Positions 51,043 through 55,584 of a stretch of DNA of 64,000 bases are shown piece after piece. This stretch comes from a virus, in IMG/VR virus record IMGVR_UViG_3300032282_005588, positions 1-64,000 of that record. One strand, written 5' to 3'. Numbering within the stretch: the first letter of the stretch is position 1; every line of letters begins with the position of its first letter. The position numbers and the translations under genes are program-made. The notes under the pieces were generated by a model. That model saw nothing but the letters and a program-made list of their open reading frames with translations, had not been told where the DNA came from and made no database searches.

Positions 51043-51396
51043 ATGTTAATAATAAAAACCAAATTAGATAATTCATCAATTCATGGAATTGGGTTGTTTT
51101 CATTAGAAAAAATAGAAAAAGAACAAGTCATTGCTGAATTGAGTGAATTTGATATTAAAATTAAAAAAGATGATGTTCCACAAAAACATATTGAAATGTT
51201 TGAGTTTTATTTTGGTGTTGAAAAAGATTGTTATCAAACATATTTTGACAACATGCGTTTTATGAATCATTCAGATTATCCAAATTGTATTGACGCAAAA
51301 AATGGTTTATGTATTGCTATTAAAGATATCGAAATAGGTAAAGAACTTACTTGCGATTATTCTTTTTTTTGTGATTTATGGGAAAATATTGATTAA
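51043..51396 (+). CDS. SET-domain protein (putative lysine methyltransferase)
   Basis: SIHGIGLF, RFMNHS..PN, AIKDI..G.ELT.DY. Confidence 0.85.
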   Translation: MLIIKTKLDNSSIHGIGLFSLEKIEKEQVIAELSEFDIKIKKDDVPQKHIEMFEFYFGVEKDCYQTYFDNMRFMNHSDYPNCIDAKNGLCIAIKDIEIGKELTCDYSFFCDLWENID

Positions 51397-51465: not shown

Positions 51466-51639
51466 ATGAAAGAAATAAATTTGAAACTTGAAACAAAGAA
51501 AGTGGAGTGCGAAACCATTTCAATAAAAACTGCGATAGTGGTTGAAGAAGGAACACCAGAAATAGTTATACCGAAAAAGATTAGAAAAGAGGTTGAGAAA
51601 CTTTTGATTGATGAACTTAAAATCTCAAAACAAAAATAA
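51466..51639 (+). CDS. small hypothetical protein (not in ORF track)
   Basis: 57 aa MKEINLKLETKKVEC... between the promoter and the first TAAC site. Confidence 0.55.
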   Translation: MKEINLKLETKKVECETISIKTAIVVEEGTPEIVIPKKIRKEVEKLLIDELKISKQK

Positions 51640-51738
51640 CATTTCATATAACGGTTGCAAATAAAACATCGTTTTAATGTGTTTTATTTGTTGTTATGTT
51701 TTAGTTTTAAAAATTTTATACAAATAAAAAATAAATAT

Positions 51739-52107
51739 ATGGAAACAAAAAAAGCAGAAATAGAAATAAAAAACTTACTTGATAGTGGTTTAAGTTTTGA
51801 ATATGATTTTGATTACAATAATGTAAATAAAGTTAATTTAGCAATTAACAGAGAAGGATATTCTATAAAAGATATTATTTCAAAACTTAAACAAGGTGAG
51901 AAAATTACTTTTATGATAAATGATGGTGAAACTTGGAATGAAAAACAAGGCAATGAAAGTAAGTTTTTATACAATGAAAAATATGATGGTTCTATTTATT
52001 GGGAACACAAAACTTATGGTGATTGGGTAAGGGTTGATAGCAATATGGGTTCGTTACAAGAATGGTCAAAAGAATTAAATGATAAGTTTTGTATAAAACA
52101 ATCATAA
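51739..52107 (+). CDS. cassette A hypothetical protein
   Basis: ATG at 51739, inside unit 51652-52128. Confidence 0.65.
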   Translation: METKKAEIEIKNLLDSGLSFEYDFDYNNVNKVNLAINREGYSIKDIISKLKQGEKITFMINDGETWNEKQGNESKFLYNEKYDGSIYWEHKTYGDWVRVDSNMGSLQEWSKELNDKFCIKQS

Positions 52108-52170
52108 AATTTTTAAAATTAAACATAACGGTTGCGGATATATGAATGTAAAAAATTAATAATTAGAAAG

Positions 52171-52500
52171 ATGATAACAATACAAAATTTAACGGAATTA
52201 GGTTTTAGTGAGATACTTGATATATTCACTGGAAAACAAGTTTGGGTTTTAGGTGAAGAAGATACGGAGATATGTGGAAACCCCTGTAGATTACCAATAT
52301 TATATTACAACATAGAAACTCAAACTTGTAAAGTAGTTAGGGGTGAATTTTGTGTTGTTCAACGAGAATGTAAATCGGAGGAAGAAATTAGAAAGTTTGT
52401 AGAATCTATTAATTTTTTATTTCATATATCCGTTGTTATAAATAGTAAATTAAAATGGTATCAAAAATTGATTGGTGCATTTAAGAACAGAAGATTTTAA
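52171..52500 (+). CDS. cassette B hypothetical protein
   Basis: ATG at 52171; reads through the GTTA core (FHISVVIN). Confidence 0.65.
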   Translation: MITIQNLTELGFSEILDIFTGKQVWVLGEEDTEICGNPCRLPILYYNIETQTCKVVRGEFCVVQRECKSEEEIRKFVESINFLFHISVVINSKLKWYQKLIGAFKNRRF

Positions 52501-52569
52501 TTTATTGTTTATAACGGTTACAGATATATGTAGTTTTTTTCTTAAATTGAAACACAAAACTTAAATAAT

Positions 52570-52791
52570 ATGAACAAAGATAATAAGAACACGGAAGTTG
52601 ATAACACAGATAAAAAATTACATATATCTGATGTTATGAAACGTATTGACGAACTGATAGATGAATATAAACAAGCGAAAATTAATATAGACACGTGTAC
52701 AGATGACTTTGAATGGAATAATTTAGATAGAAGGATAAGTCATTTAAAACGCTTGTTTATAGAAATTGGTGTATGGAAATATGTTTCATAA
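52570..52791 (+). CDS. cassette C hypothetical protein
   Basis: Reads through the GTTA core (KLHISDVM); its stop codon is the TAA of TAAC. Confidence 0.65.
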   Translation: MNKDNKNTEVDNTDKKLHISDVMKRIDELIDEYKQAKINIDTCTDDFEWNNLDRRISHLKRLFIEIGVWKYVS

Positions 52792-52887
52792 CGATTGGGT
52801 ATATATGAAGTACCTAACGATAAACTTAAATAATTAGTAGAAACTTTATGAGGTATTTCATATATACCTTGTTATAAAACGTTTATT

Positions 52888-53130
52888 ATGAGATTTAAAA
52901 AATTGATTTATAAAAATTTCTTTGGAGAATACAACATTTTGATAACCATAACAGATGATGGTAAAACACCACACAGAGACACATTAATTCCAGATAGGGA
53001 AATATATAATTCACATATTTGGATTCACGATAATATTGTAAAAAAGAATCACACAAGAAAAGAAATTTTTATTCTTGATTCTATTGTGAGTGATGACGAA
53101 CTTAAAAGTGTTCTTGGAAATGTTTTATAA
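52888..53130 (+). CDS. cassette D hypothetical protein
   Basis: Its stop codon is the TAA of TAAC. Confidence 0.65.
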   Translation: MRFKKLIYKNFFGEYNILITITDDGKTPHRDTLIPDREIYNSHIWIHDNIVKKNHTRKEIFILDSIVSDDELKSVLGNVL

Positions 53131-53245
53131 CGTTTTGCACATAAGCGAAGGCACAAATTGCGTTGGCATTGTGCGGTTGGATTTGGGCTTTTGCTTATGT
53201 GCTGTTAGCAGTAGTACGGATTATTAACAAATAAATATAAATAGA

Positions 53246-53467
53246 ATGAGAATTTATCAATTAAGAACAGCAAAAGAGTTTTACAACTCAATTAAAGGAA
53301 ACTTCACAACAGAAGAATTAATGCAAATGTATGCAGAAGATGTAGCAAAAAGATTTGCTGCTGAATGTGTAAATGAGGCACTCGGTAATAAGATGGAAGT
53401 GTCAAACTCTTTGCATCACGCAATAGAAGGAAAGTACAAATCTATCATTTGGGAGAACGAAGGTTAG
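53246..53467 (+). CDS. cassette E hypothetical protein
   Basis: Lies between GTTAGCAGTAGTAC and GTATTACTGCTAAC. Confidence 0.65.
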   Translation: MRIYQLRTAKEFYNSIKGNFTTEELMQMYAEDVAKRFAAECVNEALGNKMEVSNSLHHAIEGKYKSIIWENEG

Positions 53468-53545
53468 TATTACTGCTAACGGTCGGGTATTGTTGTCTGT
53501 TGGCGACTTAAACCACAAATGTTAAATTGAAAAACAAAATTAGAT

Positions 53546-53878
53546 ATGAGTACAAAAGTTAAATCGAAGCACAAAACCGCCAATAGCAACAATACCTTGT
53601 TATCGGCTGCCTTTCTTATTAGCAAGGGCTTCAAGTTGGTAGAAGAAAGTCAAAGTCCGTTTGAAAATTTCAAAATGGATTATTTTGTAAAAGAAGGGGT
53701 ACTGCTTTTTTTCAATACGCCTGTAACCGAATGGAACGAAAATGATTTCCTTGTTGGATGTGCTGAAATGAGATGTGGGAAGTATTACGTTGTTGCTTTT
53801 AGGTGGATAAAAGAGCAAAAAGATATTATTGAAATTTACAAATCGGTAAAAGGTAAGGATTTGGATGGTGTCGGTTAA
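53546..53878 (+). CDS. cassette F hypothetical protein
   Basis: Reads through the GTTA core (NNTLLSAA). Confidence 0.65.
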   Translation: MSTKVKSKHKTANSNNTLLSAAFLISKGFKLVEESQSPFENFKMDYFVKEGVLLFFNTPVTEWNENDFLVGCAEMRCGKYYVVAFRWIKEQKDIIEIYKSVKGKDLDGVG

Positions 53879-53943
53879 GGTTGCCGCTAACTATTATATA
53901 TACGCAACTACGTTTAATCACCAATAAAATCAACGGTTTTAAT

Positions 53944-54741
53944 ATGAAAATTCTTAAAATATTTGAGGAAAAGTTAAGATATAAAAACTACTCAGATAAG
54001 AGTATTAGGTTATATATTTCATATTTGAGGCTCTTTTTAGAAAAAGAAAAGATAAAAGACCCATATCAAGTTAGAACCCAACAAATAGTCTCATTTCTTG
54101 AAAACTACCCATTCACCAGTATAAGTCAACAAAATCAATATATTGGTACTCTTAAATTATTTGCTAAATATATATTAAGTAAAAAAGACATCCATTTAAG
54201 TAAAATGGAGAGACCCAAATCGGAAAAGAAACTACCCAGAGTTATTGATGGGGAATTTATCAAAGAAAAATTATCTAAAATTGAAAATATAAAGCACAAA
54301 GCAATACTTACCTTAACTTACTCTGTTGGATTAAGAGTGTCTGAAGTAGTTAATTTAAAGATTGAAGATATTGATTCCAAAAGAATGTTGATTCATATCA
54401 AAAACGCAAAGGGTAGGAAAGATAGATTGGTTCCGTTATCACCAAATGTTCTCAATCTATTAAGAGAATATTTTAAAGAATTCAAACCGACTCAATATCT
54501 ATTTAATGGTCAAAACTCAAATCAATACTCAATAGGTAGTTGTCAACAAATTTATAAAAAATATATTGATAAAAACAGTTCAATACATACTTTAAGGCAT
54601 TCATCTTTTACAGGTTTACTAGAAAACGGAACTGATTTAAGAATAATACAAAAAATAGCGGGACATTCCTCATCCAAAACAACAGAAATTTATACTCATG
54701 TCTCCAACCAAATGCTTTCAAAAATTAATTTGGTTATTTAG
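53944..54741 (+). CDS. tyrosine recombinase, integron-integrase-like but lacking the IntI insertion
   Basis: LRYKNYS..SI..Y N-domain, RPK.EKKLP.VI, GLRVSE, KGRKDR, HTLRH, AGH, TEIYTHV; ATG at 53944 (265 aa). Confidence 0.9.
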   Translation: MKILKIFEEKLRYKNYSDKSIRLYISYLRLFLEKEKIKDPYQVRTQQIVSFLENYPFTSISQQNQYIGTLKLFAKYILSKKDIHLSKMERPKSEKKLPRVIDGEFIKEKLSKIENIKHKAILTLTYSVGLRVSEVVNLKIEDIDSKRMLIHIKNAKGRKDRLVPLSPNVLNLLREYFKEFKPTQYLFNGQNSNQYSIGSCQQIYKKYIDKNSSIHTLRHSSFTGLLENGTDLRIIQKIAGHSSSKTTEIYTHVSNQMLSKINLVI

Positions 54742-54789: not shown

Positions 54790-55584
54790 ATGATAAATCT
54801 ACAGGCTCAATTCAAAACAAAAGAAGAAATTCGTTCTTTAGCTCCAAGTATCTTTACTGAAAATGGTGCTTCAAATGTATCAGAAAATTATACACATATT
54901 CCAACATATAAAATTATTGATGATATGGAATTGTTAGGTTGGAAACCAATTGATGCAAAAGAAGTTAAAGCAAGAAAATCAATAGGATATCAAAAACACC
55001 TAATTGTATTCCGTAATGAAGATATTTTTATTAATGGAGAAGATGGAGACAATGTGTTTCCCCAAATATTACTTACAAATTCTCATGATGGGAAGAATGC
55101 ATTTACATTTACAGCAGGTCTTTTTAGAATGATATGTGAAAATGGATTAGTACTTTCAACTAAGGAATTTGAAAATATAAAAATTCGTCATTATGGTTAT
55201 AATTTTGAAGAATTGCAAAACACAATTGAAATGATGGTTAACAAACTACCCCTAACAATTGATTCTATGAATAAATTTAAACAAATTCAATTAGGTCAAG
55301 ACCAAATGATGAAGTTTGCTGAGGAAGCTGTTAAGATTAGATTTAATAATGATATTGATAATATTAAAATTGATTTAGGTGATTTACTTACTCCAACACG
55401 TATAGAAGATAGAGGGAATGATCTGTGGAGTGTATTTAATGTAGTTCAAGAAAAATTAACACATGGTGGGTTTAATTATAATATTGGTTCTAAAAATCGA
55501 AAAGCAAGAAAAATAAAAAATTTCAAACAAGATTTAGATATGAATATTAAATTACATGATTTGGCTTTAGAATATGCTAATTAA
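54790..55584 (+). CDS. DUF932-family protein
   Basis: APSIF, Y.HIPT, KHL..FR, L.NSHDG, AGLFRMICENGL, LW.VFN.VQE. Confidence 0.8.
   Translation: MINLQAQFKTKEEIRSLAPSIFTENGASNVSENYTHIPTYKIIDDMELLGWKPIDAKEVKARKSIGYQKHLIVFRNEDIFINGEDGDNVFPQILLTNSHDGKNAFTFTAGLFRMICENGLVLSTKEFENIKIRHYGYNFEELQNTIEMMVNKLPLTIDSMNKFKQIQLGQDQMMKFAEEAVKIRFNNDIDNIKIDLGDLLTPTRIEDRGNDLWSVFNVVQEKLTHGGFNYNIGSKNRKARKIKNFKQDLDMNIKLHDLALEYAN

Follow-up and report, generated by a model that had tools for sequence, protein, structure and literature searches.

The stretch of DNA analysed here (the window, 64,000 nucleotides of a viral genome) carries on its + strand, at positions 51648-53891, six small-gene units flanked by hairpins. 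The region is best explained as an integron-like system for gene capture, with an array of six cassettes, in a large freshwater Bacteroidota phage. Inspection of the array revealed seven junction cores of the form (A/C)TAAC, at 51648, 52125, 52511, 52788, 53127, 53476 and 53887, and six internal cores of the form GTTA(T/G), at 51693, 52435, 52633, 52871, 53204 and 53599, with a TAAC-type core at both the first and the last position of the array. The array ends in a terminal attI-like site (53887-53943, + strand), located directly upstream of the start of a recombinase gene, in which the last core, CTAAC, is followed by TATTATATAT in place of the cassette loop and arm. The motif TAAC-TATTATATAT, with the variants TATCATATAT and TATAATATAT, is conserved before recombinase genes 55-86% identical. 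Arrays were identified in 62 of 80 related viral loci, and their position was always upstream of the recombinase gene.

The gene at 53944-54741 (+ strand) encodes a Xer-like tyrosine recombinase of 265 amino acids, with matches to the Pfam families Phage_integrase (8e-33) and Phage_int_SAM_4. Its best NCBIfam match was XerA (NF040815; 177 bits, cut-off 220), followed by XerD and XerC, also below their cut-offs, and the closest solved relative was XerA of P. abyssi (4A8E, 3e-32), which aligned end to end. The integron integrase profile TIGR02249 gave 148 bits, under its cut-off of 265. In the alignment with IntI4 (2A3V), residues 177-205 of the recombinase (29 amino acids) lie opposite residues 181-257 (77 amino acids), and the IntI-specific segment, the I2 helix between the catalytic patches, is absent from the phage protein. 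In integrons, the choice of strand is credited to extrahelical bases docked by this IntI-only segment.

A DNA search of the array against the phage collection gave no match, its relatives being known at the protein level only. The cultured relatives of the system are the Polaribacter phages Freya and Leef. The TAAC/GTTA stem finder returned nothing in Freya, Leef and Ingeline because their cores are different (GTTGG/CCAAC and ACAAC), and these phages were examined by eye and with BLAST. No integrase is annotated in Polaribacter phage P12002L.

Each cassette of the window runs from one (A/C)TAAC core to the next, with one internal GTTA(T/G) core inside, and contains two paired regions, X and Y. 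Cassette A (51648-52129, + strand, as are all the others) starts with an X hairpin at 51648-51697, the arms of which lie at 51658-51668 and 51680-51690, followed by a Y stem (51693-51719 with 52104-52129) whose loop contains the ORF at 51739-52107. In cassette B (52125-52515), most of the ORF (52171-52500) is enclosed by the X stem (52135-52164 with 52403-52432), and the Y hairpin is short (52435-52456 with 52494-52515). The X stem of cassette C (52511-52792) pairs 52521-52542 with 52608-52630 and its Y stem 52633-52647 with 52778-52792, the ORF being located at 52570-52791. In cassette D (52788-53131) the X stem is formed by 52798-52815 and 52851-52868, the ORF lies at 52888-53130, and the Y stem joins 52871-52884 to 53118-53131. 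Cassette E (53127-53480) has its X stem at 53137-53158 with 53181-53202, its ORF at 53246-53467 and its Y stem at 53204-53217 with 53467-53480. Cassette F (53476-53891) contains the last ORF of the array (53546-53878), an X stem formed by 53486-53505 and 53578-53596, and a Y stem formed by 53599-53612 and 53878-53891.

On one strand, the sequences flanking a junction core and an internal core pair with each other, generating a recombinase core site of the shape usual for tyrosine recombinases. This site consists of two arms of about 11 bp, in both of which the inward-running strand follows the pattern 5'-ATTR-NNNN-ATA(A/T)-3', and of a centre with 9 nt on the junction strand and 6 nt on the internal strand. 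The pairing of the cassette ends in the Y stem means that the whole cassette would fold as a rod, with the genes in loops.

Mismatches in these stems were located by aligning each left arm to the reverse complement of the right arm with an equal score for all mismatch types, so that the alignment cannot favour the + or the - strand. On the + strand, 13-14 G·T pairs were present in the core stems of the six units, which were free of A·C. In the X stems, the G·T pairs correspond to 52533·52618 in C, 52810·52856 in D, 53147·53192 and 53150·53189 in E, and 53499·53584 in F; in the Y stems, they correspond to 52443·52507 (T·G) and 52445·52505 (G·T) in B, 52643·52782 in C, 52881·53121 in D, 53214·53470 in E and 53609·53881 in F. 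The Y stem of A and the X stem of B add one each if an adjacent T is read as bulged, the equal-score alternative being a T·T with a bulged G, and a possible pair G51671·T51678 closes the loop of the X hairpin of A. Two A·C mismatches were found in the units, confined to the far extension of the X stem of F. An earlier note on this DNA had counted 12 G·T pairs and described the deviations as almost all wobbles on the + strand, a description that the alignment bears out. The three true mismatches that it reported were the same as those found here (A53153·G53186 in the X stem of E, and T53603·C53887 and T53608·T53882 in the Y stem of F), and the unpaired T that it described in A, B and F is present at 51669, 52147 and 53496, respectively. 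The constant asymmetry of 8 versus 5 nt that it placed next to the core agrees with our data if three stem pairs are counted in; the unpaired nucleotides themselves amount to 5 versus 2 in five units and 5 versus 1 in unit E. Every one of the six units also has a G directly after TAAC and a T directly before GTTA, and thereby gains an extra G·T juxtaposition. This juxtaposition was missing from the list in the earlier note.

Chance inverted repeats elsewhere in the window were used as a control, and contained 45 G·T, 28 A·C and 298 other mismatches; the values for the array in the same comparison were 30, 3 and 9, respectively. The earlier note had also proposed comparing the folding energies of both strands. 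With DNA parameters, the + strand fold was the more stable one in 10 of the 12 window stems, with summed energies of -139.5 kcal/mol for the + strand and -120.1 kcal/mol for the - strand.

The analysis was extended to a census of 431 non-identical stems (222 Y and 209 X) from 62 viral arrays, in which both strands were scored alike. This census yielded 521 G·T or T·G against 43 A·C or C·A in stems that come from related arrays and are not independent samples. The + strand fold was more stable in 186 of the 209 X stems and in 169 of the 222 Y stems, with a small energy gap between strands of 1-2 kcal/mol per stem. The G·T pairs were concentrated at particular places. At position 11 of the Y stem, G·T was observed in 179 of 215 cases (83%); the right-arm base was always T (100%), and Watson-Crick pairing was limited to 12 of 215 (6%). 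The Y pattern recurs in X with a shift of 4 nt, and at X position 15 G·T was present in 165 of 190 stems (87%), with T in 96%. Both positions correspond to the outer edge of an 11-bp arm, where the inward-running strand has T in 96-100% and Watson-Crick pairing drops to 6-8%, and a T·G is often present two pairs further inward. A third fixed G·T lies beside the crossover, where the G after TAAC (203/209) faces the T before GTTA (209/209). Beyond the fixed positions, no significant excess of G·T was detected in the Y stems (17 G·T vs 11 A·C). Since the positions are fixed (Y11 and X15), the G·T pairs are a selected mark at defined places and not tolerated drift. It has to be noted that the fixed pairs exist as G·T on the + strand only, their equivalents on the - strand being A·C mismatches, and that the mark by itself could equally be read as a - strand A·C mismatch.

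The covariation analysis suggested by the earlier note revealed 97-100% Watson-Crick pairing at the variable arm positions across the related arrays. Since this pairing is maintained despite a base composition that is mixed and mirrored between the arms, these data indicate that arm pairing is under selection.

The limits of the mobile unit were examined by comparing cassettes shared between arrays. Unit A is 99.4% identical to a unit in another viral locus (L038), where it occupies a different position in the array and has different neighbours, and a metagenome contig (X2, record 9) spans 51649-52130, corresponding to this same unit. A homologue of cassette B in loci L014 and L083 has the same arms and a different Y loop. 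Shared cassettes extend from one TAAC junction core to the next, and the breakpoints in lake metagenome contigs lie at cores. The cassette hairpins reach high multiplicity in lake metagenomes. When Y modules were followed, the upstream X was retained in three cases and the downstream X in none. The ends of shared segments pile up at junction cores on the left and at internal cores on the right, which first led us to consider independent movement of X and Y modules, or cassettes extending from one internal core to the next. Both possibilities were rejected: the X hairpins of about 120 nt are conserved families that recur in many cassettes, the seeming X-only sharing of unit B corresponds to one cassette with a diverged Y loop, and the array ends and the shared unit A fit cassettes running from junction to junction.

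Several observations locate the crossover. In 221 of 222 stems, the base located 5' of TAAC has a pairing partner within Y, but with its X partner it pairs in only 118 of 209, vs 108 expected by chance. Inheritance couples the loop to the downstream X (30% identity vs 5% background), and divergence starts right after TAAC-G in the three informative junction pairs. In addition, Freya_1 and Freya_10 differ by a 4,921-bp block, the insertion point of which is exactly ...ACAAC|, at the terminal site a short distance before the integrase; the block contains 12 small ORFs. The Freya isolates differing in this 12-gene block come from one campaign. The three junction pairs and the Freya isolates place the crossover inside TAAC(G), where a tyrosine recombinase would cut the + strand; the cut itself would fall at TAA|C, as suggested by the general polarity of tyrosine recombinases and by the alignment of the half-sites.

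Alternatively, the sites could act as ordinary duplex DNA, in which the G-versus-A difference separates two types of arm, as in the XerC and XerD arms of dif or in the inverted pdif sites flanking plasmid modules, with the complementarity of the arms arising from another cause. As a duplex, each core gives an 11 - 6 or 9 - 11 site with ATAA/TTAT beside the centre, as in Xer/dif sites with their 11-bp arms, and in all the sites the left arm is of the ATT type and the right arm of the ACT type. Xer/dif recombination, however, uses one conserved duplex site of 11 + 6-8 + 11 bp for dimer resolution, whereas here many sites per array have cassette-specific arms paired within the strand, and these arms covary across sites up to 700 nt apart, a correspondence that would be needless for a duplex. 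In the plasmids of Acinetobacter, pdif modules are bounded by Xer-type sites of alternating orientation. The junction and internal sites of the phage array alternate in the same manner, but in pdif the arms conform to one consensus instead of being module-specific complements of each other, whereas the phage arms covary within each cassette. Furthermore, the centres differ between cassettes and between site types (9 vs 6 nt), which would block a homology-dependent exchange of two strands, and the loop always travels with one side, which is what the exchange of a single strand would produce. A duplex mode of action is therefore very unlikely, and pdif-like duplex modules were kept as a weak rival only, because the arms are cassette-specific complements.

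Altogether, the hairpins are probably folded-DNA swap sites of an integron-like cassette store, in which the fixed G·T pairs would mark the + strand as the substrate of the Xer-like recombinase. The covariation, the strand asymmetry and the one-sided inheritance of the loop lend indirect backing to recombination of a folded single strand. The protein encoded at 53944-54741 would bind the folded + strand in its single-stranded state, recognise strand and polarity from the wobble pairs and the one-sided loop, and cut this strand at TAA|C. A single + strand would then be exchanged with another cassette site or with the attI-like site before the recombinase gene, and the product would be resolved by replication, as in attC x attI recombination and in CTX-phage integration. 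The + (gene-coding) strand is most likely the one folded and exchanged by this compact Xer-type recombinase, because cassettes are bounded by TAAC, the crossover lies inside TAAC and classical attC sites have an excess of G:T on the recombined strand (PMC5027507). A folded + strand substrate was also the conclusion of the earlier note, and it is supported by this evidence, which is independent of the wobbles; the reasoning from the wobbles was incomplete, since the pairs are fixed rather than scattered and tolerated.

The opposite assignment would make the - strand the substrate, with the fixed A·C mismatches distorting the helix as recognition points in place of the extrahelical bases of attC. 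On that strand, the arm facing its 5'-AAC-3' holds the extra bases, an arrangement that matches the recombined bottom strand of classical attC, and the fixed positions are almost never Watson-Crick, as expected of deliberate distortion. A fixed C·A on the + strand at X6, present in 9% of the X stems, also becomes a wobble on the - strand. However, the AAC arm of the - strand is the internal core, and a cut there would produce cassettes bounded by internal cores, whereas junction cores delimit both the array and the shared units; if the cut fell at the opposite edge of the centre, it would split the loop and the first stem pairs from the cassette, with which they are in fact inherited. The segment with which IntI docks extrahelical bases is absent from the recombinase, and the - strand fold is usually the less stable one. 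In classical attC sites the recombined strand contains G:T and not A·C, with 1.24 G:T on the recombined bottom strand vs 0.39 on the top strand; the recombined strand was shown there by experiment, and the G:T-enriched strand folds with the lower free energy (PMC5027507). On these grounds a - strand substrate is unlikely, and the + strand remains our preferred candidate.

In the phage arrays, the G·T strand coincided with the coding strand in 228 of 231 decidable cassettes. This coincidence would fit stems that act in RNA, with the hairpins stabilising, terminating or processing cassette transcripts, and G·U pairs are fully accepted in RNA helices and normal in mRNA hairpins. The earlier note had kept such a role as a caveat. 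The caveat is weakened by four bacterial or MAG relatives (L121, L157, L106 and L163), in which the strand that carries the same fixed G·T and one-sided loop is the one opposite the cassette ORFs; an RNA role for the stems is unlikely on account of this same code opposite the genes. Besides, the marks are symmetric, 10-11 bp from the crossover in both arms, which suits a recombinase dimer, the arrays always adjoin the recombinase gene and the cassettes travel between genomes. A scan against Rfam gave no relevant family, with one chance match outside the array. Two RNA runs contained only 5-7% of the sampled words. Action of the stems in RNA as their main role is thus hardly probable, and a secondary effect at the RNA level may accompany DNA exchange in the phage arrays.

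The array resembles classical integrons (IntI, attI and attC; class 1 and the VCR of Vibrio cholerae) in that mostly one-gene cassettes lie by the gene of a tyrosine recombinase and a fixed terminal site, and move between arrays. The cores fit the RYYYAAC/GTTRRRY inverted pair, with the crossover at the AAC triplet, and site structure is conserved while sequence is not. In both systems an unpaired asymmetric centre separates two binding boxes, and G:T mispairs are enriched on the strand of lower folding free energy (PMC5027507). Unlike in integrons, the recombinase of the phage has no IntI-specific insertion and resembles XerA most closely, and the R box is lengthened to 12-25 bp through the pairing of the cassette ends in the Y stem. 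The phage arrays also differ in that cassettes open with the hairpin, the marked strand carries the genes, and the recombinase gene follows downstream with the same orientation. The likeness to attC drawn by the earlier note has to be amended as regards the placement of the extra bases, which on the + strand fold have the geometry of the non-recombined top strand of classical attC. In attC, two or three extrahelical bases occupy the arm that faces the AAC of the strand undergoing recombination; no such bases were found here, and fixed G·T pairs and a one-sided 5-nt loop take the place of these bulges as strand marks.

A second parallel is the integration of the CTX phage, for which Val et al. 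reportedly described in 2005 the recombination of a folded (+) single-stranded attP with dif by XerC/XerD. In both cases a Xer-family enzyme is involved, the core site arises from intrastrand pairing of two inverted half-copies, with 11-bp arms and a mismatched centre, and one strand would be exchanged and the product resolved by replication, as we infer for the phage array. The CTX phage relies on the two-enzyme Xer machinery of the host and on one fixed site for integration of the whole phage, whereas here one phage-encoded recombinase would serve many cassette-specific sites in an array. Clusters of attC without an integrase (CALINs) were previously described in phage genomes, together with predicted attC-like hairpins between small genes of virulent phages, including a Polaribacter phage with sites in both directions, and IntI1 recombined five of the six sites tested (Qi et al. 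2023; PMC9892861). That study describes no dedicated Xer-like recombinase, paired cassette ends, fixed G·T or reversed gene polarity (PMC9892861). No published description of the present system was found in the literature.

Integrons are the textbook example of recombination in which a site is recognised by the shape that a single strand adopts on folding. The phage system shares their logic (cassettes, a terminal site, an AAC crossover and covarying hairpins), yet its recombinase has no IntI segment. The chances are about even that a compact Xer-type enzyme without the IntI insertion runs a full cassette system on folded single-stranded DNA, with a G·T code of one pair per arm and one at the crossover replacing the extrahelical bases. 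Such a system, mounted on a phage and with the coding strand as the recombined one, would represent a second way of achieving structure-specific recombination of single strands, one from which integrons descend or which evolved independently. The phage system is widespread, as indicated by the 62 arrays among 80 related viral loci and by the hairpins in lake metagenomes. If the wobbles are indeed a strand mark, they reveal by what means a plain Xer-type enzyme achieves specificity for one folded strand, cassette exchange extends to large and small Bacteroidota phages and their hosts, and the sites would offer a simple, testable grammar for the design of structure-specific recombination sites.

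The window has a G+C content of 26.6%, with every long ORF on the + strand, and encodes a DnaB-like helicase, a ribonucleotide reductase, a DNA polymerase, a tail-spike-like virion protein and GroEL, a gene content that marks it as a segment of a large phage genome; the viral contigs with relatives range from 30 to 360 kb. The cassette array (51648-53891, + strand) consists of seven junction cores, (A/C)TAAC, alternating with six internal cores, GTTA(T/G). In the X stem of each cassette, the junction core is followed by five unpaired nucleotides and by an arm that pairs with the sequence before the next internal core, leaving one or two unpaired nucleotides directly before that core. In the Y stem, the sequence after the internal core pairs unbroken with the sequence before the next junction core. 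The stem loops contain six small ORFs, for which no Pfam family was found; three cassette ORFs (52171-52500, 52570-52791 and 53546-53878) cross stem arms or the internal core, and in several cassettes the stop codon is the TAA of the junction core (52789-52791, 53128-53130). After the array lies a tyrosine recombinase gene (53944-54741, +; 265 aa), directly followed by a gene for a DUF932 (phage/plasmid-like TIGR03299) protein (54790-55584). A SET-domain protein is encoded two genes upstream of the array (51043-51396).

Both ends of the array are junction cores. Unit A (51648-52129) was found again at 99.4% identity in the related locus L038, in the middle of an array and with different neighbours, and the recombinase of that locus is only 66% identical to that of the window. 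One lake-water contig spans exactly 51649-52130, a second one links cassette B with a D-like hairpin, and Y modules seen in two contexts retained the upstream X in three cases and the downstream X in none. These observations indicate that each cassette is delimited by two junction cores and opens with its hairpin. In four lake-water metagenomes, short X hairpins reached summed contig depths of 100-690, whereas cassette ORFs stayed below about 50, indicating that hairpin families are reused across many cassettes and organisms; X-hairpin families thus resemble VCRs in their reuse by many cassettes. The depth-rich hairpins correspond to window positions 51628-51741, 52540-52653, 52768-52881 and 53110-53223.

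The earlier note had described the stem deviations as mostly G·T pairs on the + strand, and had proposed folded + strand ssDNA as the substrate. When the left arm of every stem was aligned to the reverse-complemented right arm, under a scoring that treated all mismatch types equally and favoured neither strand, the core stems of the six units showed 13-14 G·T on the + strand and no A·C. The same three true mismatches and the same three bulged T residues that had been named were also recovered. With DNA parameters, the + strand folded better in 10 of the 12 window stems (summed energies of -139.5 and -120.1 kcal/mol for the + and the other strand, respectively). Chance inverted repeats elsewhere in the window, used as a control, were dominated by mismatches of other types (45 G·T, 28 A·C, 298 other), in comparison with 30 G·T, 3 A·C and 9 other in the array. 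The bias was maintained in a larger sample of 222 Y and 209 X non-identical stems (521 G·T/T·G vs 43 A·C/C·A). These data confirm the observed strand bias and partly support its interpretation.

Relatives of the recombinase were identified in 80 viral contigs (52-86% identity), and a stem finder handling both strands alike detected X and Y stems linked into chains at 62 of the 80 loci, in all of them upstream of the recombinase gene and in none downstream. The 5′ arm bears the longer loop in all 62. Covariation was evident: variable arm positions were 97-100% Watson-Crick despite a mixed base composition mirrored between arms, indicating selection on pairing and not on sequence. In one related viral contig (L014, 242-5924), the 6 kb covered include an unbroken run of at least 14 cassettes, with 29 modules in alternation, and the array extends past the flank.

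Position numbers refer to the right arm; Y counts start at the C of TAAC, and X counts start at the G of GTTA and proceed leftwards. Position Y11 was G·T in 179 of 215 stems and Watson-Crick in 12, with T on the right in 100% and G on the left in 84%; T·G occurred at Y9 in 9% of stems, and T·T at Y10 in about 13%. Shifted by 4 nt, this pattern becomes that of X, with G·T at X15 in 165 of 190 stems (T in 96%) and T·G at X13 in 12%. In X stems, the base after TAAC was G in 203/209 and the base before GTTA was T in 209/209. When one stem per 88%-identity cluster was counted, signature positions gave 352 G·T and no A·C, other Y positions 17 vs 11 (p = 0.34), and other X positions 88 vs 25 (p = 2e-9), chiefly at X10 and X12. 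In a GC-rich subclass (9% of X stems), position X6 is a fixed C·A when read on the + strand. At the fixed wobble places, A·T is one transition away in a 27% G+C genome, yet it is avoided. The earlier count of G·T pairs was therefore upheld, but the pairs, being fixed in position, are a selected mark and not tolerated drift.

The recombinase contains Phage_integrase and Phage_int_SAM_4 domains; its best curated family is XerA, with a score below the cut-off, and its best solved relative, P. abyssi XerA, aligns end to end. In the alignment with Vibrio IntI4, a stretch of 77 residues in IntI4 is matched by 29 in this enzyme, and the IntI-specific segment is absent. This absence argues against a - strand substrate recognized through extrahelical bases, which that segment reads. 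Before the gene, a conserved TAAC-TATTATATAT site (53888-53901) looks like a counterpart of attI. Tyrosine recombinase core sites usually comprise two 11-bp arms around a centre of 6-9 nt. The cassette site has the same shape, but is formed by pairing within one strand: both arms read 5′-ATTR-NNNN-ATA(A/T)-3′ towards the centre, to which the junction strand contributes 9 nt (the C, five loop nt and three stem nt) and the internal strand 6 nt. The outer edge of each arm carries one wobble, its G on the outward-running strand, a two-fold placement that fits two recombinase monomers.

The base directly 5′ to TAAC has a Y-stem partner in 221/222 cases, but pairs with its X partner only at chance level (118/209, 108 expected). 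Loop sequences (5 nt) travel with the downstream X, since they were identical in 30% of pairs that had a common X family but differed upstream, against a background of 5%. In the three informative pairs with a common upstream cassette, divergence starts directly after TAAC-G. In the X stem, the first three pairs covary with the cassette to which they belong. Among cultured Polaribacter phages, Freya_10 (L166, 48062-48920 and 1-4146) differs from Freya_1 (L165, 43900-43978 and 1-60) by an extra 4,921-bp block with 12 small ORFs that enters exactly after ...ATTGTTTACAAC, closes with ...ATTGTTGCTAAC and abuts the integrase leader. Altogether, these data place the crossover inside (T/C)AAC(G).

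The Freya_10 insertion point is an ...ACAAC core before the integrase gene. The ten Freya isolates of one campaign have genomes of 43,978 to 48,920 bp, and the intermediate sizes suggest that cassettes are gained or lost stepwise in this cultured system. Freya and Leef stems around small ORFs upstream of the integrases have another core, GTTGG...CCAAC, with position 11 again G·T and a direct TATAAGGT motif beside the cores (Leef_1, L003, 2954-2976/3420-3442, 3559-3583/3780-3804 and 4372-4391/4560-4579; Freya_10, L001, 3733-3749/3777-3793). Genes of Freya, Leef and Ingeline had been annotated as integrases and taken as a sign of a temperate lifestyle/lysogeny (Bartlau et al., PMC8776804).

Regarding strand choice, tyrosine recombinases cleave the strand carrying their bound arm 5′ of the centre, a rule that at the junction core points to the + strand, cut at TAA|C. 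With a - strand substrate, the AAC-bearing arm would be the internal core, or cleavage would occur 9 nt further right, both at odds with the cassette boundaries found. In classical attC sites, for which a G:T strand bias has already been published (1.24 G:T on the recombined bottom strand and 0.39 on the top strand), the bottom-strand fold is lower in energy by 2.12 kcal/mol (PMC5027507); by analogy, the + strand would be favoured in the phage array. A point for the - strand is that its extra bases lie on the arm opposite its AAC, as they do on the recombined bottom strand of classical attC. On this sequence evidence, the + strand is rather probably the one recombined.

An RNA-level role had also been considered. 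Of the 231 phage-array cassettes for which this could be decided, 228 bear the mark on the coding strand, so that phage data alone cannot separate a DNA from an RNA role. By contrast, relatives in bacterial genomes and MAGs with recombinases 38-43% identical, from a Bacteroidota MAG (L121), Aquimarina (L157), Maribacter (L106) and Marinoscillum (L163), share the wobbles at Y11 and at the outer X position, as well as the 5-against-2 loop, but bear them on the strand opposite the cassette ORFs, which argues against such a role. The wobble mark thus tracks site polarity, not transcription. The small arrays in Bacteroidota genomes and MAGs (L121, 6462-9094; L106, 6839-8461; L157, 8655-9759) lie beside the recombinase gene and show the classical integron order, in which the gene precedes the hairpin; on their coding strand, the crossover is at G|TT. 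The phage arrays are the same system with the genes reversed. In L121, five near-identical 80-nt hairpins are interleaved with genes of 211-222 aa.

AttC-like sites and integrase-less clusters have been reported in phages, including one Polaribacter phage (Qi et al. 2023, PMC9892861). The literature searches brought up no account of a cassette system with a Xer-like enzyme, paired cassette ends and fixed wobbles and, as far as found, a fixed-position G·T code without IntI is apparently unpublished. The finding matters to those who study site-specific recombination and the plasticity of phage genomes.
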